This document shows, piece by piece, positions 520-62,727 of a DNA stretch of 64,000 nucleotides. The notes below the pieces were generated by a model. The model was not told the origin of the DNA and searched no databases. It saw only the letters and a program-made list of their open reading frames with translations. Each line of letters opens with the position of its first letter. Within the stretch, counting starts at the first letter, position 1. Origin of the DNA: Alphaproteobacteria bacterium (GTDB lineage: Bacteria > Pseudomonadota > Alphaproteobacteria > Rs-D84); the NCBI GenBank assembly GCA_017463185.1, contig JAFTPS010000014.1, positions 40,514 to 104,513 of the forward strand. Direction: 5' to 3'. The position numbers and the translations under genes were made by a program.

Positions 520-1611
520 CTAATTCTCCGGTGCCAGTATATTACTTATTTGCCCATTCTGGCAAGCAACAAATACCGCATTCGGTACATCACGAAATAT
601 TTCCGCATCCAGTCCCGTTGCCCAAACCTGGGCATCCGCCGCCCCCAGTTCGCGAAACAAATTCGCCCGTGCATTTGCGTCCAGGTGGGCAGCAGCCTCG
701 TCCAATAAAATCAACGGACGATAACCAGTTTTTGTATGCACCAGTTTCGCATGTGCCAAAATCAAATCCAATAAAACTGTTTTTTGTTGCCCGGTACTGG
801 TTAAATTCGCCGGCAGGTTCAGTTCTTTATTAAACACCCCAAAATCAGACTTATGCGGTCCATCCAGCATCATTTTATCACCCACCAATTCGCGATTTTG
901 CCGCAGGTATTCCAGATATCCTCGCTCTGCATCGCCGGCACTTAGCCCATCTATTATCATTTTTTCAATCATACCGACAACCGATACCGCACACCGACAC
1001 AAAAAATAATTTAATTCACCCGCATATTGAATACGCGCCGCCGCCACGGCAACCGCGACACCGGCAATTTGGACATCCAGCGCATCCAACCATCGTGCAT
1101 CTGCCCCATTTTTAAGTGCATACGCGCGCTCCGACATCAGTTTAGCCAATCGCGCCGTACGCCCCGCGTGCGCGGCATCAAAACTAGTCGCCAGACGGTC
1201 AAAAAAACTGCGCCGTTCGGCGGCCCCTTCTACAAATAATCTGTCCTCGCGCGGGGTCAGCCAAACGATTCGCATAAAACGCGCCAATTCGGACAAAGGC
1301 GCACTGTCTCCATCTATCCGCGCACGCCGATTCGTGTCACCACCAGCAAAACTGACCGATATTTCGGTATCATCAGCCAGATTTGCAAAAACAGAAAACG
1401 ACCCAACGCCACCAAAACGCGCCACATCCGTCATGGCGGCACCACGCAAACCGCGTTCCCCCGACAGCATTGATACAGCCTCTAACACGGCGGTTTTTCC
1501 CGCCCCATTGGGGCCAGTAATAATAACATTGCGCCGACCGTGCGTCTTTATACGACACATTTCATGATTTCTAAAATCAGTCAGGCTTAGTACTTCTATC
1601 ATATGTCGCAT
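520..1611 (-). CDS. recF: DNA replication/repair protein RecF
   Basis: N-terminal LSLTDFRNH and Walker A GPNGAGKTAVLEA, C-terminal LLDEAAAHLD signature. The start is uncertain: ATGs at 1611 and 1602, and the ORF track begins at a TTG at 1638. Confidence 0.9.
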   Translation of the reverse strand: MRHMIEVLSLTDFRNHEMCRIKTHGRRNVIITGPNGAGKTAVLEAVSMLSGERGLRGAAMTDVARFGGVGSFSVFANLADDTEISVSFAGGDTNRRARIDGDSAPLSELARFMRIVWLTPREDRLFVEGAAERRSFFDRLATSFDAAHAGRTARLAKLMSERAYALKNGADARWLDALDVQIAGVAVAVAAARIQYAGELNYFLCRCAVSVVGMIEKMIIDGLSAGDAERGYLEYLRQNRELVGDKMMLDGPHKSDFGVFNKELNLPANLTSTGQQKTVLLDLILAHAKLVHTKTGYRPLILLDEAAAHLDANARANLFRELGAADAQVWATGLDAEIFRDVPNAVFVACQNGQISNILAPEN

Positions 1612-1652
1612 AATACACCAAGCCCACCAATCCCGCAATATGGATTTTATGT

Positions 1653-1687: not shown

Positions 1688-1921
1688 TGAAACCATAGGG
1701 ATATGGCTTCGGGACCTTCAAAAGTCCAATATTCAAGGAGCGCACGCGATGTGTGCGTTGATATCCGCGTAATGCGGCGCATTTTGCGCTGCTTTTTATG
1801 ACCCCCGCGTTGTCGGGGTGCTGTGGGGCATATAACAGGGTTCGCCCGAAACCCCACAGGGTCATTTCCTTGAATATGATTTTTGAACACCCCGACCGCC
1901 AAATCTCTGGCGGTCTTTTTT
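1688..1921 (+). ncRNA. Structured 5' leader or sRNA, R-class copy R1, ending in a strong intrinsic terminator
   Basis: 5' hairpin CCATA-GGGA-TATGG followed by CTTCGGGACC (1693..1716). Long-range helix ATTCAAGGA (1731..1739) / TCCTTGAAT (1867..1875). Hairpin CCCCG/CGGGG (1803..1818). Terminator GACCGCC-N8-GGCGGTC-T6 (1894..1921), about 20 nt before the ATG at 1943. Homologous blocks occur at 61780..62009. Confidence 0.55.
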
Positions 1922-3212: not shown

Positions 3213-4434
3213 ATCTGGGACCACCCATTGGGCCACCCATACGATTACCACTATTTCTGTTGGCGGATGATACCATACCAATTTTACCAACCACAATTCG
3301 GTCGCCCTGCTCTATTTCATCGGATACAATTTCCGTTTCCGTCGCCGTCACCAGGCCCTTAGAATACGGCACCAGCATTATATCACCATCGCGTTCTATC
3401 GCCAAATGGGTTTTCGGCGTTGCGCCATTTGCATCCGCAATAATTCCATCAAAACTGCGAACCAAAAATGCGGAATTAGACGCTTTCCATACATTATCGC
3501 GTTCGGAAATAATAATCGTCACAAACGCGGTCATTCCTGGCATCAAACGCAAATCTGAATTATCCACATCAATCACCACCGTATAAACTACAACATTAGA
3601 TGTCGTTGTCGGCGACAGGCGCACTTGGCGTACAAAGCCCTCAAAAGTTTCGGTCGGATACGCATCAACGGTAAATGTCACGGTCTGATTATCTTTTATC
3701 ATACCAATGTCAGCCTCTGACACAGATGTTTCAATCTGCATTTTGGTCAAATCCTCGGCAATTTCAAACAAGTCAGGGGTCTGAAAAGACGCTGCAACGG
3801 TTTGACCCTCGTCCACTTTGCGTGAAATAACCGTACCATCCACGGGCGACACAATCGTCGCATACCCCAGATTTGTCACCGCCCGTTCATATTGTGACTG
3901 CATACGATTTACGGATTGTTCGGCCTGTTCATACGTGGTTTGGGATTGTTCCATTTCCGCACGGGAAATAAAACCTTCGTTATACAAAGTCTTGTTGCGT
4001 TGATATTCGGCCTTGGCATAGTTGCGTTGCGATTCGGCACTGACCAATGATGCCTTAGCCTCGTCCACGGACGCTTGCAGAACCGATGGCTCAATTTCTA
4101 ATAAAACATCGCCCTTTTTCACTTTGGTGTTAAAGTCAACATAAAGTTTATCAATAGTTCCCGATACCTGCGAACCAACACTAACTGTATTTAAAGGCTG
4201 AATTTCACCGGTCGCGGTCACAACCTGGCGCAGGTCACCACGAGAAATCTTGACCATTGCAAATTCGGACGGCTTTTTTGCACCACCACCAAACAACAAC
4301 GCCGCCCCACAAACCAAGGCCACCAACAAAATCAGCCACCACTTTTTACGCCATATCCAACCAAAGACGCGACGCAACCACGATTTCTTTTTCACAGTAT
4401 TATTTTGAACTTTTTTGTTATTAGTCTTCCGCAT
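3211..4434 (-). CDS. Efflux periplasmic adaptor (HlyD/MacA-type membrane fusion protein)
   Basis: N-terminal TM anchor, biotinyl-lipoyl-like and coiled-coil hairpin regions (VSGTIDKLYVDFNTKVKKGDVLLEIEP.. / ..TIVSPVDGTVISRKVDEGQTV). Overlaps the tolC stop by 14 nt. Confidence 0.85.
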   Translation of the reverse strand: MRKTNNKKVQNNTVKKKSWLRRVFGWIWRKKWWLILLVALVCGAALLFGGGAKKPSEFAMVKISRGDLRQVVTATGEIQPLNTVSVGSQVSGTIDKLYVDFNTKVKKGDVLLEIEPSVLQASVDEAKASLVSAESQRNYAKAEYQRNKTLYNEGFISRAEMEQSQTTYEQAEQSVNRMQSQYERAVTNLGYATIVSPVDGTVISRKVDEGQTVAASFQTPDLFEIAEDLTKMQIETSVSEADIGMIKDNQTVTFTVDAYPTETFEGFVRQVRLSPTTTSNVVVYTVVIDVDNSDLRLMPGMTAFVTIIISERDNVWKASNSAFLVRSFDGIIADANGATPKTHLAIERDGDIMLVPYSKGLVTATETEIVSDEIEQGDRIVVGKIGMVSSANRNSGNRMGGPMGGPR

Positions 4435-5852: not shown

Positions 5853-5926
5853 GGCCTGGTGGCAGAGTGGTTATGCAGAGGACTGCAAATCCTTGTATGC
5901 CGGTTCGATTCCGACCCAGGCCTCCA
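5853..5926 (+). tRNA. tRNA-Cys (anticodon GCA), CCA encoded
   Basis: Acceptor stem GGCCTGG/CCAGGCC. Anticodon stem GAGGA/TCCTT around the loop CTGCAAA. T-loop TTCGATT. 4-nt variable loop. Short D stem with a G:A pair as in other tRNA-Cys. One C:A mismatch in the T stem. Confidence 0.88.
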
Positions 5927-7759: not shown

Positions 7760-8413
7760 ATGAAAATAAAAATTTTAACGACTTTAATATGCATTCTGCC
7801 ACTTGCGGCAAACGCGGCTATTCCATATCGCGTACAACAGACAAAAATGCCCGCCCCAGAAACACCAACCGGTCAGGATTCTGAGGCCTTGGCCCGTATC
7901 CATCGTTTCTATGTTGGTGGCGCATATAATTTTTCAATGTGGTCAAATTATACTGATGACAAAGATGTACATATCAGCGGCAACAACACATCATCATTTG
8001 AAATTATGGCCGGCATTCGCATTTATGACACATTCAGATTAGAAGCAAACTATTTGCACACAAATGCCAAATGGAATCAATTTTCATTTGATGGCAATAC
8101 TGCATTTGTGAACGCAATATTTGATGCACGCATTGATAATATTTACCGCCTGTTTCACAGCCAAATGATTATTCCATATGTGGGATTGGGTGCTGGTCTG
8201 TCCTGGAACAGTGCCGATGACGGCATAAAAATGGACACCAAAATTACACCTGTGGCGGCGGCCCTGGCGGGGATTGGCGTGGAATTGGGCGAACACTTTG
8301 CATTGGATTTTGGATACAGATATTTTTATATGTTCAATCCAAAATTTGATATTGTATCCGACTATAACCCAACCGCACACCAATTCCGCGTTGGCGCACG
8401 GGTAAATTTCTGA
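7760..8413 (+). CDS. Outer-membrane beta-barrel protein (Omp25/porin-family like), tandem paralog
   Basis: Signal peptide MKIKILTTLICILPLAANA, with YVGGAYNFS.., ..PYVGLGAGLSW.. and terminal ..GARVNF. Confidence 0.75.
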   Translation: MKIKILTTLICILPLAANAAIPYRVQQTKMPAPETPTGQDSEALARIHRFYVGGAYNFSMWSNYTDDKDVHISGNNTSSFEIMAGIRIYDTFRLEANYLHTNAKWNQFSFDGNTAFVNAIFDARIDNIYRLFHSQMIIPYVGLGAGLSWNSADDGIKMDTKITPVAAALAGIGVELGEHFALDFGYRYFYMFNPKFDIVSDYNPTAHQFRVGARVNF

Positions 8414-52884: not shown

Positions 52885-53388
52885 ATGATAAAAAAATGCG
52901 ACCACCCGGGTTGTACCAAGGCCGGAACATGCCGTGCACCCAAAACACGCGATTTGCGTGAATACTGGTTTTTCTGCACTGAACACGCCGCCGAATATAA
53001 CAAGAATTGGAATTACTATGCCGATATGACCCCCGATGAAATAGAGGCCGACTGGGAACGTCAAACTTTCGGCGCACCGTTAAAGGATAAAAATACGGCC
53101 AACACAGACGCAAACGATTATGCAAAATTTATAAATGATTTTATCACAGGTCGCAGTGCATTTGACCGCGTACCGGCAAAAAGCAAACTGCCCACCAATG
53201 TTGTATCCGCGTTAAAGGTATTTGACCTGGGGATTTCCGCCACCTGGCGCGATGTTGGCATTAAATATCGCGCATTAGCAAAAAAATACCACCCCGACAC
53301 CGCCACCGACAAGAAAAATGCAGCAACCGAATTTGCCCGCATTTCCACCGCATACGACATTTTGAAAAAACATTTCGGCAAAAAATAA
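52885..53388 (+). CDS. J-domain protein (C-terminal DnaJ domain, N-terminal Cys/His-rich region)
   Basis: ..YRALAKKYHPDTATDKK..FARISTAYDIL... N-terminal CDHPGCTKAGTCRAP..FFCTEH. Confidence 0.75.
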   Translation: MIKKCDHPGCTKAGTCRAPKTRDLREYWFFCTEHAAEYNKNWNYYADMTPDEIEADWERQTFGAPLKDKNTANTDANDYAKFINDFITGRSAFDRVPAKSKLPTNVVSALKVFDLGISATWRDVGIKYRALAKKYHPDTATDKKNAATEFARISTAYDILKKHFGKK

Positions 53389-53399
53389 AAATTGGGAAA

Positions 53400-53520
53400 A
53401 CGTGCCTGTGGCAATCATGGGCCATATATTGCATATTTACATCGCGGATAACAATTCGCACCGCGAACACTGTACCAAAACAAAGGACTTTCTGAGGCCC
53501 GAACCCACATCCCTATGGGC
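53400..53520 (-). ncRNA. Third, truncated copy (R3) of the R-class leader 5' module, with no downstream CDS
   Basis: The minus strand reads CCCATAGGGATGTGGGTTCGGGCC (53496..53519), versus CCATAGGGATATGGCTTCGGGACC (R1) and CCATAGGGATATGGGTTCGGGGC (R2). It also shares GGTGCGAAtT and TTATCCGCG blocks. No obvious promoter. Confidence 0.4.
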
Positions 53521-53529
53521 AATGTTTGC

Positions 53530-53562
53530 AAAAAAAATACCGGCATCATGTCGGTATTTTTT
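53530..53562. terminator. Palindromic terminator
   Basis: AAAAAAAATACCGgcatcatgtCGGTATTTTTT. Confidence 0.7.
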
Positions 53563-53609
53563 CACGCGTCAATTTGCCCCCCAGATATTTTTATGATATA
53601 ATCAGGTTC

Positions 53610-54290
53610 ATGAAACGTTCCATTTGGTTTTGGCTGTATTTTATAGTTGCCATTATTTTGGCAATATACTTTTCATCACGAATTATTATGACGGGGCTGT
53701 CCCACGGCCAACTATCACGCGTTCACCGTGTTTCTATATCCGCCGACACAGGGGGCAAGGATTTATCCACAATCATCACCGCCGCCGCGGTTGCCCCCGA
53801 CACGGATTCATATTCACTGGACCTGGCGGCGATGAATGCGCGTGTTGGTGCGGTACCGGGCGTACGCGCATCGGCGGTTCGTCGCCTGCCAAATGGTAAT
53901 TTGGCGGTACGCGTATCACTGTATCGGGCGGTCGCCCTGTGGACCGACGGGGAAAATTATTTTCCACTGTCCGCCGATGGCACAATAGTCAATAAACCAA
54001 CTGATACGCGCGATGCGGGCGATGTTGTTTTTCGCGGTCCCCTGCCCCGTGATATATCCCGTATAACCAAGGTTGCACATAATCTGGTTGGTGAAATTGA
54101 TTATTTGGAATGGATTGAAAATCGCCGGTGGAATCTGCACACAACTGGGGGCATAACCGTACTGTTACCCGAATCCAACCCGGATACCGCAATCAGTTCA
54201 TTGATGGTCCTGCAACGCAATCATAAAATTTTACAGCGCGACATAACCGTAATAGATATGCGCGACGATGCGCGTATTTTGGTAAAATAA
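53610..54290 (+). CDS. ftsQ: Cell division protein FtsQ
   Basis: Start trimmed to MKRSIWFWLYFIVAIILAIYF (TM helix). POTRA-like region. Followed by ftsA. Confidence 0.8.
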   Translation: MKRSIWFWLYFIVAIILAIYFSSRIIMTGLSHGQLSRVHRVSISADTGGKDLSTIITAAAVAPDTDSYSLDLAAMNARVGAVPGVRASAVRRLPNGNLAVRVSLYRAVALWTDGENYFPLSADGTIVNKPTDTRDAGDVVFRGPLPRDISRITKVAHNLVGEIDYLEWIENRRWNLHTTGGITVLLPESNPDTAISSLMVLQRNHKILQRDITVIDMRDDARILVK

Positions 54291-60783: not shown

Positions 60784-61341
60784 ATGAGACCGCTTATCGC
60801 ATTATTGGGATTTTTATGGGCATTTCCAATTATCGCAGACGAAGTCCCTGCGGACACCACGGCAAACACAGAAACAGTTGCCGCAACGGTGCGCGAACGT
60901 CTGTCGTGTGATGAATTGACGGCAAAAATTGCGGAACTGTCCGCTATTACCGAACCAGACACCATAACGATTGACGAATTGACATCGTACAAATCCGAAC
61001 ATCGTCGCAATTGTTCTAAATCAATGGGGGCTCGTCGCACAAACTTTACCCGTGCAAGTTCCGCCCCCGCAATCGCAACAGCGGACACCACGCCCGTACA
61101 ACCGGAAACAACAGATACAAATACCGAGGCCGCTACCGAACCAGTGGTTGCCGACCCCACGCCTAAACCCGAATTGACCGCCGAACAAATTACGGAAAAC
61201 ATCAATGCGGGCCTGTGTGCCGATGGCAGCGAACCAAACAAATTCGGTTGTTGCGGCGATGAAAAATTCAAAGATTTGGGTAATACAGTATTTGCCTGTT
61301 GTCCACCAGACGGCGGCGATTGCTTCCCCCCACTGCGGTAA
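60784..61341 (+). CDS. Secreted protein with Thr/Pro/Glu-rich spacer and C-terminal Cys knot (..FGCCGDEKF..FACCPPDGGDC..)
   Basis: Signal peptide MRPLIALLGFLWAFPIIA. 185 aa. Confidence 0.6.
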   Translation: MRPLIALLGFLWAFPIIADEVPADTTANTETVAATVRERLSCDELTAKIAELSAITEPDTITIDELTSYKSEHRRNCSKSMGARRTNFTRASSAPAIATADTTPVQPETTDTNTEAATEPVVADPTPKPELTAEQITENINAGLCADGSEPNKFGCCGDEKFKDLGNTVFACCPPDGGDCFPPLR

Positions 61342-61347
61342 AAAAAT

Positions 61348-61737
61348 ATGAAAAAACCCGAAAAAAATTTTACATTTCCCCAATCCGCGTCGGTTATAAA
61401 ATATATTCGTAAAAAGTACACGACCGAACCAGAATTTCTGTGGAAAAAATTTCCACGATATGCAATCTGGCGATATGAAAAAAATAATAAATGGTATGGG
61501 GTAATAATGTCAATTCCGCGCATAAAATTGGGATTGTCGGGCGATGATATGATTGAAATTCTGGACCTGCGAATAGATACAAACGAAATACCATTGGCAA
61601 TTGACAACAAACATTATTTTCCTGGCTGGCATATGAATAAAAATCATTGGATAACAATAATCCTGGATGGCTCGGTTGCCCTATCCGAAATATACCACCG
61701 AATTGATAACAGTTATCAAATCACCACCAATAAATAA
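61348..61737 (+). CDS. MmcQ/YjbR-family DNA-binding protein
   Basis: ..PEFLWKKFPRYAIWRYEKNNKWYGVIM.. and ..PGWHMNKNHWITIILDGSV.. Confidence 0.75.
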   Translation: MKKPEKNFTFPQSASVIKYIRKKYTTEPEFLWKKFPRYAIWRYEKNNKWYGVIMSIPRIKLGLSGDDMIEILDLRIDTNEIPLAIDNKHYFPGWHMNKNHWITIILDGSVALSEIYHRIDNSYQITTNK

Positions 61738-61744
61738 CCATACC

Positions 61745-61773
61745 TTGATTCTGGAAAATCAAACTGATATAAT
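61745..61773 (+). promoter_or_regulatory. Consensus-like promoter TTGATT-17-TATAAT
   Basis: Hexamers at 61745..61750 and 61768..61773. Confidence 0.55.
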
Positions 61774-61779
61774 ACACTT

Positions 61780-62009
61780 GAATCCATAGGGATATGGGTT
61801 CGGGGCTGTAGCAAGCCTGTCTTATCCGGTGCGAAATCAGGTGCGTCGTTAATCCGATACACTGTCCATAATTTTGCATCGTTATTTATCCCTGACTTAA
61901 TAAGTCGGGGGGCTGTTCGCCATACAACAGGACTATTCCAAAAGCAACAGAATCAACGATAAGACGATTTGCTAACTCCCCGACCGTCATTCCTGTGGCG
62001 GTTATTTTT
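61780..62009 (+). ncRNA. Structured 5' leader or sRNA, R-class copy R2
   Basis: 5' module CCATAGGGATATGGGTTCGGGGC (61784..61806). Hairpin CCCTGACTT-aat-AAGTCGGGG (61890..61910). Conserved GCTGT..CATAnAACAGG block. Terminator GACCGTC-N8-GGCGGTT-ATTTTT (61982..62009), 20 nt before the ATG. Confidence 0.55.
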
Positions 62010-62028
62010 ATTATATTGGGGGGCCACA

Positions 62029-62727
62029 ATGAAGAAAATATTTATACCGCTATTATGCCTATCAACAATTGATGCAACGGCACACACAGAATTTACAAGA
62101 AAAGTTTCTGACATAAACTTTGCAATACGAAACCTGTGTACAGAAATGCAACTTTACGCCAATGAAAATAATTTAAGTATTATTGCTAACTCATCTAATA
62201 CTGAGTGGATTCCTTCTTCGCGTGAATTTAACTTAAACACCATTGATTGTAATAAGACCGAGCTTGCGGACCTTGTGTATCTAAACTTCGCATTTTCAAC
62301 CCTAATCCCAGAAGCAAAATCTGACAATACATCACCTGCAAAATCATCAACCAATCAATCAACCACAACAAATGATACAAACGATGAAATAATATATCTG
62401 GCTAAAAATTATTGCCGTTTATACAGAAATAGAGAAATCTCTTCAAAAACTGTTCAACAAGGATACAACAAAATAAAAACACAATATGCCGAATGCGAAA
62501 AAATAGACGACAAAAATTTACGTTGTGTTGAATCAACATTATTTTCAAACAAACAAAACCAAACACGAATGTATGGTAAATGTTGCTTGATACAAAACAA
62601 TGGAAAACAAAGCGACGGTGCTTACAGTATGTCTATGCCCCGCCACAGCCAACTTCATATGTTTAATAATTCAACACAAACAATGACACTTGATGATTTT
62701 GATACAAATTGCCAAAGCTTACGATAA
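62029..62727 (+). CDS. Secreted Asn/Thr-rich, Cys-containing protein (AT-rich gene)
   Basis: Start trimmed to MKKIFIPLLCLSTIDATA (GGGGGG RBS). 232 aa. No family recognised. Confidence 0.65.
   Translation: MKKIFIPLLCLSTIDATAHTEFTRKVSDINFAIRNLCTEMQLYANENNLSIIANSSNTEWIPSSREFNLNTIDCNKTELADLVYLNFAFSTLIPEAKSDNTSPAKSSTNQSTTTNDTNDEIIYLAKNYCRLYRNREISSKTVQQGYNKIKTQYAECEKIDDKNLRCVESTLFSNKQNQTRMYGKCCLIQNNGKQSDGAYSMSMPRHSQLHMFNNSTQTMTLDDFDTNCQSLR

Follow-up and report, generated by a model that had tools for sequence, protein, structure and literature searches.

The R2 locus raises the question of what a structured RNA of about 230 nt does between a strong promoter and the gene of a secreted protein. The window referred to below is the whole 64,000-nt stretch of DNA that was analysed. 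The initial annotation had proposed that the RNA is a leader, one of two full copies in the window (the other being R1), with a switch built around its terminator. The preferred reading, held here at a probability of roughly 0.6, is that R2 is the 5' leader of the mRNA of the secreted protein encoded at 62029-62727 and acts in cis as a transcription attenuator on an sRNA-Xcc1-like domain, terminating by default and responding to an activating signal that remains unidentified. This reading is inferred from sequence alone, there being no expression, termination or probing data. R2 likely belongs to a lineage-specific family of structured leaders, each about 230 nt long, which is an inference of the same kind.

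The R2 locus and its parts

R2 occupies the entire 291-nt intergenic gap between the stop codon of the upstream gene (61737) and the ATG at 62029. The neighbourhood consists of a chromosomal 129-aa gene on one side and an orphan secreted protein on the other, with lolCD and ftsQA nearby. The leader position claimed in the initial annotation was upheld, and the arrangement recurs in dozens of genomes. The promoter, the 5' module and 5' hairpin, the CCCUGACUU/AAGUCGGGG hairpin, the AUACAACAGG block shared with R1 and the terminator were all confirmed at the coordinates originally assigned to them. The parts of the locus are as follows.

61745-61773, + strand: sigma-70-type promoter, TTGATT (61745-61750), 17-nt spacer, TATAAT (61768-61773)
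61780-61801, + strand: P0, 9-bp hairpin at the 5' end (61780-61788 with 61793-61801), GAAUCCAUA-GGGA-UAUGGGUUC with a GNRA-type tetraloop
61784-61806, + strand: 5' module CCAUAGGGAUAUGGGUUCGGGGC, partly inside the P0 hairpin
61802-61805, + strand: z, a GGGG run that would pair with CCCC (61978-61981) in the ground state or sit in P1' in the alternative state
61803-61818, + strand: P1', alternative local hairpin GGGCU...AGCCU, its loop holding the 5' strand of outer P2
61809-61826, + strand: 5' strand of P2, outer UAGCAAG (61809-61815) and inner UGUCUUAUC (61818-61826)
61827-61881, + strand: P3/P4 domain, P3 61827-61837 with 61871-61881, P4 61840-61848 with 61855-61863
61890-61898, + strand: a, CCCUGACUU, proposed anti-antiterminator, partner of b
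61902-61912, + strand: b, AAGUCGGGGGG, the strand common to both helices (61902-61910 with a, 61904-61912 with c)
61912-61932, + strand: GCUGU..CAUACAACAGG block, present in R2
61913-61950, + strand: P5, hairpin with a conserved internal loop CAUACAACA / AAAA, equivalent of sRNA-Xcc1 hairpin 1
61951-61969, + strand: P6, alternative hairpin AAUC-N11-GAUU, corresponding to Xcc1 hairpin 2, its loop being the inner 3' strand of P2
61958-61974, + strand: 3' strand of P2, GAUAAGACG (61958-61966) and UUUGCUA (61968-61974)
61976-61984, + strand: c, CUCCCCGAC, pairing with b (proposed antiterminator, the Xcc1-like closing stem) or, via CCCC, with z
61982-62009, + strand: intrinsic terminator, stem 61982-61990 with 61995-62003, followed by AUUUUU
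62018-62727, + strand: Shine-Dalgarno sequence GGGGGG (62018-62023) and open reading frame (ATG 62029, stop 62727)

The promoter matches the consensus at 10 of 12 positions and has a TG preceding the -10 element; transcription is predicted to start near G61780. The terminator (-12.3 kcal/mol) lies 20 nt upstream of the ribosome-binding site. The open reading frame encodes 232 aa beginning with MKKIFIPLLCLSTIDATA, has a signal-peptide-like N-terminus, and matched no Pfam family over 62029-62727. The minimum free energy of the R2 region is -87.4 kcal/mol, compared with -59.1 +/- 4.5 kcal/mol for dinucleotide shuffles (z = -6.3), and none of 200 shuffles was as stable.

The main structural feature is P2, a long-range helix of roughly 16-20 bp formed by 61809-61826 and 61958-61974 and strongly backed by covariation. 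In 69 of 71 copies the region of its 3' strand is matched by a perfectly complementary stretch of 7 nt or more in the 5' strand, about 3 such copies being expected from shuffles. P2 was absent from the initial annotation, as were the resemblance of the 3' half to sRNA-Xcc1 and a shorter stand-alone relative elsewhere in the window. The internal loop of P5 (CAUACAACA at 61921-61929, AAAA at 61940-61943) contains the conserved AUACAACA. The tip of P5 is GGGG-GNRA-CCC in most family members; that of R2 itself is GGA-CUAU-UCC, which is not a GNRA loop.

The P0 stem covaries in copies that were found without P0 as the search anchor (CCAAU/AUUGG, CCAAA/UUUGG, CCACA/UGUGG), and its loop is GGGA in most copies and GAGA in one (L232). 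Three readings of P0 were rejected. A DNA operator palindrome is ruled out by the G-U-compatible or compensatory changes. A CsrA/Rsm site, which calls for several GGA motifs in hairpin loops including one at the Shine-Dalgarno sequence, is unsupported: only the P0 loop (A-GGGA-U) fits, and the GAGA loop of L232 is without GGA, as are most of the Shine-Dalgarno regions. The suggestion that P0 is invariant, and so bound by protein, was withdrawn: its invariance in alignment A2 was forced by the search pattern, and the stem varies in the scan anchored elsewhere.

Competing helices around the terminator

The initial annotation had claimed that GUCGGGG can alternatively pair with CCCCGAC, overlapping the terminator arm, and that this forms a switch. 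Both claims held. The pairing covaries and has a full length of 9 bp (61904-61912 with 61976-61984). The b strand has two partners supported by covariation, CCCUGAC upstream (a) and CCCCGAC downstream (c), and the b:c stem overlaps the 5' arm of the terminator by GAC(C), the shared GAC of R2 being 61982-61984. As an isolated hairpin a:b has an energy of -13.6 kcal/mol, and the b:c duplex one of -18.5 kcal/mol.

The covariation was read from 40 representative sequences, with as many as four Watson-Crick pair types occurring at a single position. For a:b, column pair 135/147 is UA20 UG8 CG5 AU2, and 132/150 has one GC-to-AU double change. For b:c there are compensatory changes at three column pairs: 154/257 (GC34 UA2 UG2 AU1 GU1, never unpaired), 155/256 (AU16 GU16 UA4 GC2) and 156/255 (GC36 UA3). 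Copy L035 links the two helices, as a C-to-U change in b is matched by a G-to-A change in a and is tolerated as a G-U pair with c. Elsewhere in the fold, column pair 33/250 of P2 is UA15 AU12 CG10 GC2, 57/115 of P3 is GC16 AU13 GU11, 27/36 of P1' is CG24 UA3 UG3 GC2, and six of the seven P5 pairs show double changes. Compensatory support was absent for P6 and for z:c in these 40 sequences. The P6 helix is conserved with no double change, so that its support is weak. In z:c (columns 23-26 with 257-260) three pairs are invariant and the fourth is unpaired in 4 cases; the pairing of column 257 with z is broken in 4 of the 40 sequences, whereas its pairing with b is never broken.

The RNAalifold prediction has 49 pairs, and compensatory changes are seen in 27 of these. 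When the ground-state fold described below is imposed on the 40 representatives, 94.3% of the cells are paired, compared with 38-48% when the partners are slid, and 29 pairs show double changes; none of 500 shuffles reaches the observed values. The shuffle control ignores phylogeny. The slid-partner control keeps relatedness, but the structure itself was derived from the same sequences. These results bear on the claim that the resemblance of R1 and R2 reflects functional conservation and not a recent duplication, which also held: the sequences of R1 and R2 diverge across the middle, with the helices kept by compensatory changes. The family offers a clear case in nature of a switch whose two alternative helices are both backed by compensatory changes.

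The proposed mechanism has two states. In the ground state P2 would form, the 5' GGGG would pair with the CCCC of c, a would pair with b, and the terminator would fold, stopping transcription and leaving an RNA of about 230 nt. In the alternative state the 5' strand of P2 would be held in the local hairpin P1', and the 3' half would fold like sRNA-Xcc1, closed by b:c; the terminator would then lose its base, and RNA polymerase would read into the gene. In calculations of co-transcriptional folding P1' (-7.3 kcal/mol) appears in each transcript prefix up to a length of 198 nt, and the minimum-energy folds of the growing RNA all retain it until c has been made. The b:c state lies about 20 kcal/mol above the ground state, and the alternative state therefore needs kinetic trapping or a stabilising factor. 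The preferred guess for such a factor is a protein, a small molecule being less likely, that would recognise the P0/P1' module or the Xcc1-like core. The shorter relative in the window, class B, has the same 5' module and could then compete for the factor. P2 and b:c have no nucleotides in common and might coexist as a pseudoknot, a possibility under which only z:c and a:b versus b:c would switch. Genes of the OmpA/Pal-like type found downstream are usually constitutive and fit poorly to a device that is off by default, which counts against the attenuator reading.

An alternative is that the RNA does not switch at all, and that the 5' hairpin and the P2 duplex protect the mRNA or direct its cleavage by RNase III or RNase P, the terminator being a leaky attenuator that sets the expression level. 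Precedents are the stabilising 5' UTR of ompA and the processing of phage c4 RNA by RNase P. In favour of this explanation, a hairpin stands exactly at the 5' end of R2, P2 has roughly the size of an RNase III substrate (~16-20 bp), abundant outer-membrane proteins are among the regulated genes, and c4 antisense RNA, whose architecture is common to canonical Xcc1, appears in papers on RNase P (judged from titles and term counts). It leaves unexplained the compensatory upkeep of two mutually exclusive b helices and the overlap of c with the terminator, and is considered very improbable.

Two further candidates were discarded. For attenuation by a leader peptide, as in trp, L003/L004-type copies have a 12-codon AUG...UGA frame ending inside a; it has no Shine-Dalgarno sequence, and by eye L005 and R2 have it out of frame or not at all. 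For antiterminator hairpins of the ANTAR or PRD type, no fitting loop motifs were seen by eye.

Distribution of the family and relatives in the window

About 80 full copies turned up in a scan of genomes, nearly all of them from Candidatus Enterousia and related gut Alphaproteobacteria that are uncultured (order Rs-D84, genomes near 1 Mb). In total there are 93 loci, nearly all from metagenome-assembled genomes (MAGs) of Enterousia or Rs-D84; all sequence evidence for the family comes from MAGs. The census of the window and of the loci used nhmmer profiles. The gut bacteria of Enterousia and of Rs-D84 at large are uncultured, their genomes measure ~0.75-1.0 Mb and their lifestyle is unknown (PMC12306168). 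Nearly all copies have a promoter equivalent to that of R2. Terminator hairpins were present in each of the 67 copies evaluated, with a median energy of -12.5 kcal/mol and at least four U within the 8 nt that follow. The U run is spaced 15-25 nt from the Shine-Dalgarno sequence. Short variants, termed class C, keep P1', P2, a, b, P5, c and the terminator and are without P0 and P3/P4.

Copies unlinked to the 5' ends of genes would have refuted the leader reading in the initial annotation. Such a pattern was not found: 65 of the 77 copies that include the 3' part have a Shine-Dalgarno sequence and a start codon on the same strand, 45-66 nt past CCCCGAC. Among 55 different proteins encoded downstream, 46 have a signal-peptide-like N-terminus, a lipobox occurs in 14 and multiple transmembrane segments in 7; Autotransporter and OmpA domains are represented. 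The family points to a set of genes that meet host or partner cells, and a multi-copy 230-nt leader before outer-membrane, lipoprotein and secreted genes would be among the few regulatory devices visible in Enterousia/Rs-D84 genomes.

One near-identical allele, including the promoter and the Shine-Dalgarno-ATG region, lies upstream of at least eight different genes in 14 MAGs. It is inferred that leader, promoter and ribosome-binding site behave together as one portable cassette for the expression of envelope and secreted proteins. Putative mobile promoters are homologous promoter regions upstream of unrelated genes. They are similar in that an identical promoter-leader-Shine-Dalgarno-ATG unit precedes unrelated genes; unlike them, the leader unit contains a terminator as well as a large covarying RNA structure and is thus more than a promoter. 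The occurrence of this allele, together with the many family matches at contig ends, as is usual for repeats, might suggest a generic dispersed repeat or mobile promoter without any function at the RNA level. That explanation is all but excluded. The orientation and the distance to the downstream start codon are fixed, extensive compensatory substitution keeps the helices, a covariation that largely refutes it, and the G-U-compatible changes argue for selection on RNA and not on DNA.

Within the window a profile search found three copies only, R2, R1 and class B, and the exact 14-mer CCATAGGGATRTGG occurs three times. The two relatives of R2 are as follows.

1653-1921, + strand: R1, full copy; promoter TTGATT-17-TACAAT (1653-1681), RNA 1689-1921, terminator 1894-1915 followed by a U run
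53355-53518, - strand: class B relative, shorter, with an uncertain 3' end (~53355)

R1 is followed by the gene of a 406-aa signal-peptide protein (ATG 1943), and its structure has a z of -6.95 relative to dinucleotide shuffles. The class B RNA has P0 (loop region GGGAUGUGG), P1' and the next ~55 nt in common with R1 and R2. It is without b, P5, c and the terminator, and no same-strand open reading frame lies downstream. P1' is also found in class C. Class B occurs once per MAG in 13 MAGs, and its comparison with Rfam gave only chance-level matches. Pairing of class B with R1 or R2 in trans was tried and rejected, the duplex energy being only about -1 to -2 standard deviations relative to shuffles and not clearly better; the whole-length duplex method was uninformative for this comparison.

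Comparison with sRNA-Xcc1, c4 RNA and other systems

RNA of the R2 type is absent from Rfam 15 and from the literature searched. At the gathering score Rfam finds only a tRNA in the whole window, and ARAGORN found no tmRNA. At E <= 10 the sole credible match in the R2 and R1 regions is sRNA-Xcc1 (RF02221), with 28.2 bits for R2 (E = 6e-3) and 40.9 bits for the 3' half of R1 (E = 6e-6). The gathering score is 53, which no RF02221 match reaches either in the window or among 18 Enterousia loci; true members score 59-87 bits. R2 is nevertheless likely to be a distant relative of sRNA-Xcc1, its 3' half resembling the family below the cut-off, as inferred from the sequence. The segment 61903-61993 aligns to the whole model (positions 1-87). 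In both RNAs a closing stem of 9-10 bp (GUCGGGG.../...CCCCGAC, b:c in R2) encloses two hairpins. The first has an asymmetric internal loop AUACAAYA / GAA(A) and, in most members of the leader family, a 3-bp tip capped by a GNRA loop; the second hairpin and the single-stranded joiner vary freely in sequence. Both RNAs lie ~40-50 nt upstream of a same-strand open reading frame.

The differences lie in context and in added parts. Canonical copies are ~87 nt long and are found in prophages, integron cassettes and plasmids before ant, BRO, ORF6N or symE, whereas R2 is chromosomal. In the leader family the domain sits in a 230-nt RNA with an added anti-antiterminator and intrinsic terminator, and genes of envelope proteins lie downstream.

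Another alternative is that R2 is a stand-alone trans-acting sRNA gene of the Xcc1 type with an extra 5' domain, its terminator being a constitutive 3' end and the next gene merely adjacent or reached by incidental read-through. R2 does have its own promoter and a good terminator, its ground-state fold terminates, the closest family is described as trans-acting, and the class B relative does stand alone. Against this, the U run is only 15-25 nt from the Shine-Dalgarno sequence and in 65 of 77 copies c lies at a fixed distance of 45-66 nt from the start codon, so that room for a second promoter is lacking. Each copy pairs its variable recognition segments in cis with its own 5' strand, and these segments differ between copies, with no common exposed seed, and the extra element a makes sense only as part of a switch. 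This explanation is judged unlikely.

A classical riboswitch, in which the P3/P4 junction or the internal loop of P5 would bind a metabolite that chooses between terminator and antiterminator, is less likely still. The complex conserved fold, the GNRA loops, the conserved unpaired nucleotides (AUACAACA, GAAA) and the terminator/antiterminator expression platform speak for it. However, the regulated genes are alike in localisation and not in metabolism, the short variants do without P0 and P3/P4, P5 of R2 has no GNRA cap, and the Xcc1-like core elsewhere appears to act by base pairing and not by ligand binding; a riboswitch is therefore thought very unlikely.

The attenuator reading preferred here places R2 beside the three-helix attenuators of the trp type and riboswitch platforms (1:2 / 2:3 / 3:4), which have the same chain of mutually exclusive helices (a:b, b:c and c with the terminator). 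Promoter, leader, terminator, Shine-Dalgarno sequence and open reading frame are likewise on one strand, with the terminator directly upstream of the Shine-Dalgarno sequence. Unlike those systems, the leader family has no conserved leader peptide, no sensor ligand, tRNA or protein has been identified, and a long-range helix of 16-20 bp from the 5' end takes part in the choice.

The c4 antisense RNA of the immI region of phages P1/P7 (RF01695; Citron & Schuster 1990, cited in PMC8201110; the c4-a1b1 motif is listed in PMC2864571) is the other relevant comparison. The c4 system is known for its a1b1, a'b' and a2b2 segments. c4 resembles the leader in being a structured RNA with two short variable recognition segments complementary to an upstream target copy (a1b1) in the same transcription unit, and P2 of R2 corresponds to the a1b1:a'b' pairing made in cis. 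RF01695 itself gave no match at E <= 10 in 61700-62100 or 1600-2000. The leader differs in having the upstream partner (P2) without a second target at the downstream ribosome-binding site (a2b2), in its proposed output, which is intrinsic termination and not a block to translation, and in a context that is not phage immunity. The long-range "address" helix P2 differs between copies in one genome. A bolder reading, offered only as a possibility, takes R2 for a phage-type immunity RNA that has become domesticated. A gut symbiont with a reduced genome would have captured an antisense domain of the Xcc1/c4 type, and the domain would have been rewired onto its own transcript, where self-pairing would gate an intrinsic terminator. 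The promoter-leader-RBS-ATG-AAA unit would have spread as a portable cassette before surface and secreted genes, giving an RNA-based regulon of surface proteins in which each copy has an orthogonal address helix and class B is a common trans regulator or a decoy for the factor.

The comparison also bears on sRNA-Xcc1 itself. Annotations in many phages and genomes of pathogens present it as an sRNA that acts in trans, is linked to virulence and has an unknown target. In 77 of 94 prophage copies the variable hairpin-2 loop and joiner of the canonical RNA find a perfectly complementary stretch of 7 nt or more at the downstream ribosome-binding site, compared with ~12 copies expected; this feature was derived here from those 94 copies and is not in the Rfam description. 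In Enterousia leaders the match of the variable segments to the downstream ribosome-binding region is near the shuffled background, the few longer matches being scattered and A/T-rich, and the segments pair with the upstream strand of their own leader instead. The comparison suggests that sRNA-Xcc1 should be recast from a trans-acting sRNA toward an RNA acting locally, in the manner of c4, on the ribosome-binding site of the adjacent gene, often a phage antirepressor. The canonical Xcc1 RNAs in prophages look like antisense RNAs of the phage P1 c4 type.

The R2 leader and related RNAs in the window

R2 belongs to a real, previously undescribed family of structured leader RNAs. The initial annotation had placed between 61745 and 62028 a promoter, a hairpin, a block shared with the other full copy (R1), a terminator and an alternative pairing of GUCGGGG with CCCCGAC. 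All of these elements are present and were correctly positioned. The promoter TTGATT-17-TATAAT (61745-61773) has 10/12 matches in a consensus scan. The single terminator-like site in the scan has its stem at 61982-62003, followed by ATTTTT. The RNA (61780-62012) folds at -87.4 kcal/mol, compared with -59.1 +/- 4.5 kcal/mol for dinucleotide shuffles (z = -6.3), none of 200 shuffles being equally stable. R2 takes up all of the intergenic space from the stop codon of the preceding gene (61737) to the ATG at position 62029, which opens a 232-aa ORF whose product starts with MKKIFIPLLCLSTIDATA. Just 5' of this region, 60784-61341 (+) encodes a further predicted secreted protein (MRPLIALLGFLWAFPIIADE...) without a leader copy, so that only some exported-protein genes carry the leader.

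The 14-mer CCATAGGGATRTGG has exactly three matches in the window, at 1693 (+), 61784 (+) and 53505 (-). Searches of the window with family-built profiles returned the same three sites and nothing beyond.

Family RNAs and tRNA in the window
1689-1921, plus strand: R1, architecture as in R2 (shuffle z = -6.95)
61780-62012, plus strand: R2
53518 to about 53355, minus strand: class B RNA, between a DnaJ-domain gene (52885-53388) and ftsQ (53526-54290)
5853-5926, plus strand: tRNA-Cys (GCA), the sole window RNA at Rfam gathering score

The gene directly 3' of R1 encodes a 406-aa signal-peptide protein. Class B is a shorter, stand-alone relative, whose homology to R1 and R2 is confined to its first ~75-90 nt: the 5' hairpin P0 (loop region GGGAUGUGG), the alternative local hairpin P1' and ~55 nt more. 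Its 3' end is the conserved CAACAGGCACnUUUUCCCA; in the window it is followed by neither a terminator nor a same-strand ORF, and a comparison with Rfam gave no credible match. Thirteen MAGs carry it, each as a single copy, and a tsaE-like gene is often convergent with it.

Family distribution and downstream genes

Searching one genome for each bacterial species with CCATAGGGATRTGGNTTCGGG yielded 93 loci, nearly all in MAGs named Candidatus Enterousia or unclassified gut Alphaproteobacteria. Their hosts include sheep, goat, buffalo, chicken and human, among others. These MAGs fall within Rs-D84, an uncultured order whose genomes measure about 0.75-1.0 Mb (PMC12306168). All evidence is sequence-only and derived from MAGs. 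Two loci (L052, L076) are in bins labelled Muribaculaceae and one (L069) in a bin labelled Acutalibacteraceae, both from unrelated phyla; this is probably binning error or contamination.

Full-type copies (class A) account for 81 of the hits; the 3' part is present in 74 of these, and the RNA is mostly 220-242 nt long. A hairpin (median -12.5 kcal/mol) with a U-rich tail after it is retained in all 67 copies evaluated. A Shine-Dalgarno sequence (SD) and start codon lie 45-66 nt 3' of the CCCCGAC element in 65/77 copies. A hydrophobic N-terminal segment typical of signal peptides is present in 46 of the 55 distinct downstream products; 14 have a lipobox and seven are multi-span membrane proteins. 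When ten products were scanned against Pfam, an autotransporter beta-domain was found in one and an OmpA domain in another; the remainder, including the 232-aa product of R2, gave no significant family.

An alternative explanation is that the element is a plain repeat, and the initial annotation had proposed that copies unlinked to gene 5' ends would show this. The copies do associate with the 5' ends of genes. By that test a leader is clearly favoured over a repeat; the link to envelope-protein genes is established.

Because the exact 21-mer misses diverged copies, copy number per genome exceeds the pattern count. Diverged full-type copies (e.g. CCAAAUGGGAUAUGG, CCAAAGGGAUUUGG) were seen in L072 at 3404-3625 (+), L011 at 7814-7996 (+) and L044 at 1401-1612 (+). 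The L072 copy lies only about 190 nt 3' of a class B RNA.

The sequence of the long-range helix P2 differs within one genome, both between R1 and R2 and between copies in several MAGs. Yet a single allele is found before at least eight different genes in 14 MAGs (L003, L012, L014, L034, L044, L047, L074, L078, L082, L084 and others), its copies being identical or near-identical from about -57 up to and including the SD and ATGAAAAA. These genes are unrelated, encode exported proteins and occur in different MAGs. Numerous family hits fall at the ends of contigs, a pattern that suggests identical repeats interrupting assembly. Given the recurrence of one allele and the contig-end hits, the promoter-leader-SD unit behaves as a portable expression cassette, besides its proposed regulatory role.

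Conserved helices and the proposed switch

Covariation was evaluated in a MAFFT-based alignment (A2) of 40 representatives with mutual identity below 92%, in which the inner domain P3/P4 is poorly aligned. RNAalifold gave 49 pairs, with compensatory changes in 27. In the structure made up of the named helices, 94.3% of cells are paired, compared with 38-48% when the partners are slid by 1-3 columns, and both-sided changes occur at 29 pairs. None of 500 shuffles matched any observed pairing measure, although this control ignores phylogeny. The dominant feature is P2, formed in R2 by 61809-61815 with 61968-61974 and 61818-26 with 61958-66. Single P2 positions show all four Watson-Crick types (31/252: CG17 GC12 AU4 UA4; 33/250: UA15 AU12 CG10 GC2). 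Covariation is also found in P3 and in the hairpin P5.

P0 looks invariant in A2 only because the search pattern was itself located in P0. In 13 loci from a metagenome scan anchored on P5 and strand c, the P0 stem varies in a compensatory manner (CCAAU/AUUGG, CCAAA/UUUGG, CCACA/UGUGG, CCAA/UUGG) and the loop is GGGA, once GAGA. These variants mark P0 as an RNA hairpin capped by a GNRA-type loop.

No Rfam family was reached at gathering score by the leader elements in the window and in 18 family loci. Under relaxed thresholds, R1 and R2 each give an end-to-end alignment of their 3' half with RF02221, scoring 40.9 bits for R1 (E = 6e-6) and 28.2 bits for R2 (E = 6e-3). The cut-off is 53, and genuine sRNA-Xcc1 members fetched as a comparison score 59-87 bits. 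The likeness extends to the closing stem (b:c in the leaders), a first hairpin with internal loop AUACAAYA / GAA(A) and GNRA-capped tip, the second hairpin and the single-stranded joiner. Since the scores are below the cut-off yet specific features are shared, the 3' half is treated here as an Xcc1-like domain rather than a member of the family.

Strand b (GUCGGGG + 2-3 nt) has two possible partners, upstream strand a (CCCUGAC...) and downstream strand c (...CCCCGAC), and compensatory changes are found in both helices. For a:b, columns 135/147 have UA20 UG8 CG5 AU2, 128/154 have CG32 GU4 UG2, and 132/150 include one GC-to-AU double change. For b:c, 154/257 have GC34 UA2 UG2 AU1 GU1 with zero unpaired cases, 155/256 have AU16 GU16 UA4 GC2 and 156/255 have GC36 UA3. 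P2, P3, P5, a:b, b:c and P0 are under selection. A ground-state rival for c is the 5' GGGG run z; three z:c pairs are invariant and the fourth is broken in 4/40 sequences. In R2, c (61976-61984) overlaps the terminator 5' arm, which starts at 61982; formation of b:c thus takes away the base of the terminator. The chain a:b / b:c / c-terminator is that of a classical attenuator.

We interpret the leader as a terminator/antiterminator attenuator built on the Xcc1-like domain; the reading of the initial annotation is supported. The switching is inferred from sequence alone, and no effector is known. Rival readings, namely a stand-alone sRNA, a metabolite riboswitch and a processing or stability element, were weighed individually, as was the plain repeat. 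P1' (61803-61818), which has modest covariation support, ties up z together with the 5' strand of outer P2, and it forms the minimum-energy fold of each transcript prefix until c is transcribed. At equilibrium the terminator-permissive fold is favoured by about 20 kcal/mol (-87.4 vs -67.1 with b:c forced), so that termination would be the default and read-through would depend on either kinetic trapping or a factor. In the attenuator model, b:c would be the antiterminator, and read-through would require a persisting P1' or a stabilised Xcc1-like fold. The stabiliser might, speculatively, be a protein recognising the P0/P1' module or the P5 core, for which the single-copy class B RNA, having P0 and P1', might compete. 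As P2 and b:c have no nucleotides in common, their coexistence cannot be excluded; conceivably both form together in a pseudoknot, leaving z:c plus a:b versus b:c as the sole switching choice.

In L003, L004 and similar loci, a 12-codon ORF (AUG UCA UUC CUG UGG UUU UGU GUC GUG AUU UAU CCC UGA) runs from ~40 nt upstream of a into a, with its UGA stop within a. It lacks an SD, is out of frame or absent in R2 and L005, and is probably coincidental.

Canonical sRNA-Xcc1 copies compared with the leaders

In the searchable literature Xcc1 is a trans-acting sRNA of unknown target, reported before symE in Xanthomonas integron cassettes, before an ORF6N gene in phage APSE and in tandem in a Xylella island. 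We sampled 94 distinct prophage copies from IMG/VR (L098-L217), as well as L094-L097 and L218. In 77/94 copies the next ~110 nt contain a perfect complement, 7 nt or longer, to the hairpin-2 loop or the joiner, compared with ~12 copies in the shuffle expectation. For loci viewed individually, this complement generally stops at the SD of the next gene (e.g. CTTTGAAG vs CTTCAAAG|GAGG), which is often ant, BRO or KilA-N-like. The element of phage Aaphi23 is flanked by q and ant, the antirepressor gene, and on a Pseudomonas plasmid the element lies 5' of a BRO-family gene. A second complement, of at least 8 nt, is present 100-135 nt upstream in 55/94 copies; in the loci inspected, this site is followed by its own hairpin and T run.

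The immI region of phages P1 and P7 consists of a1b1, then c4 RNA with a'b', then a2b2 at the RBS. Canonical Xcc1 loci have the same layout of upstream site, RNA and RBS-proximal site. The c4 RNA and the regulation of ant are cited in PMC8201110, and the c4-a1b1 motif is listed in PMC2864571; no paper tying Xcc1 to antirepressor control was found in the literature searched. This analogy suggests that Xcc1 acts on its neighbouring gene as an antisense regulator of c4 type and is not a free trans-acting virulence sRNA.

Whereas the canonical variable segments match the SD region of the next gene, those of the Enterousia leaders pair upstream in cis with their own 5' strand, a complement of at least 7 nt being present in 69/71 copies. 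Their matches to the downstream RBS region are at background level, the few longer ones being scattered and A/T-rich. Element a and the intrinsic terminator are present in these leaders, whereas neither was seen in canonical copies inspected by eye. Enterousia genomes also contain short leaders (class C).

Class C short leaders
L024, 6110-6270, plus strand
L045, 7750-7900, plus strand
L067, 1940-2090, plus strand
L010, 5930-5760, minus strand

Class C retains P1' (its loop pairing with the joiner), P2, a and b (a:b), the two Xcc1-type hairpins P5 and P6, c, the terminator, and the SD with start codon. Because it dispenses with P0 and the P3/P4 domain, the core of the proposed switch is the Xcc1-like domain together with its cis partner.
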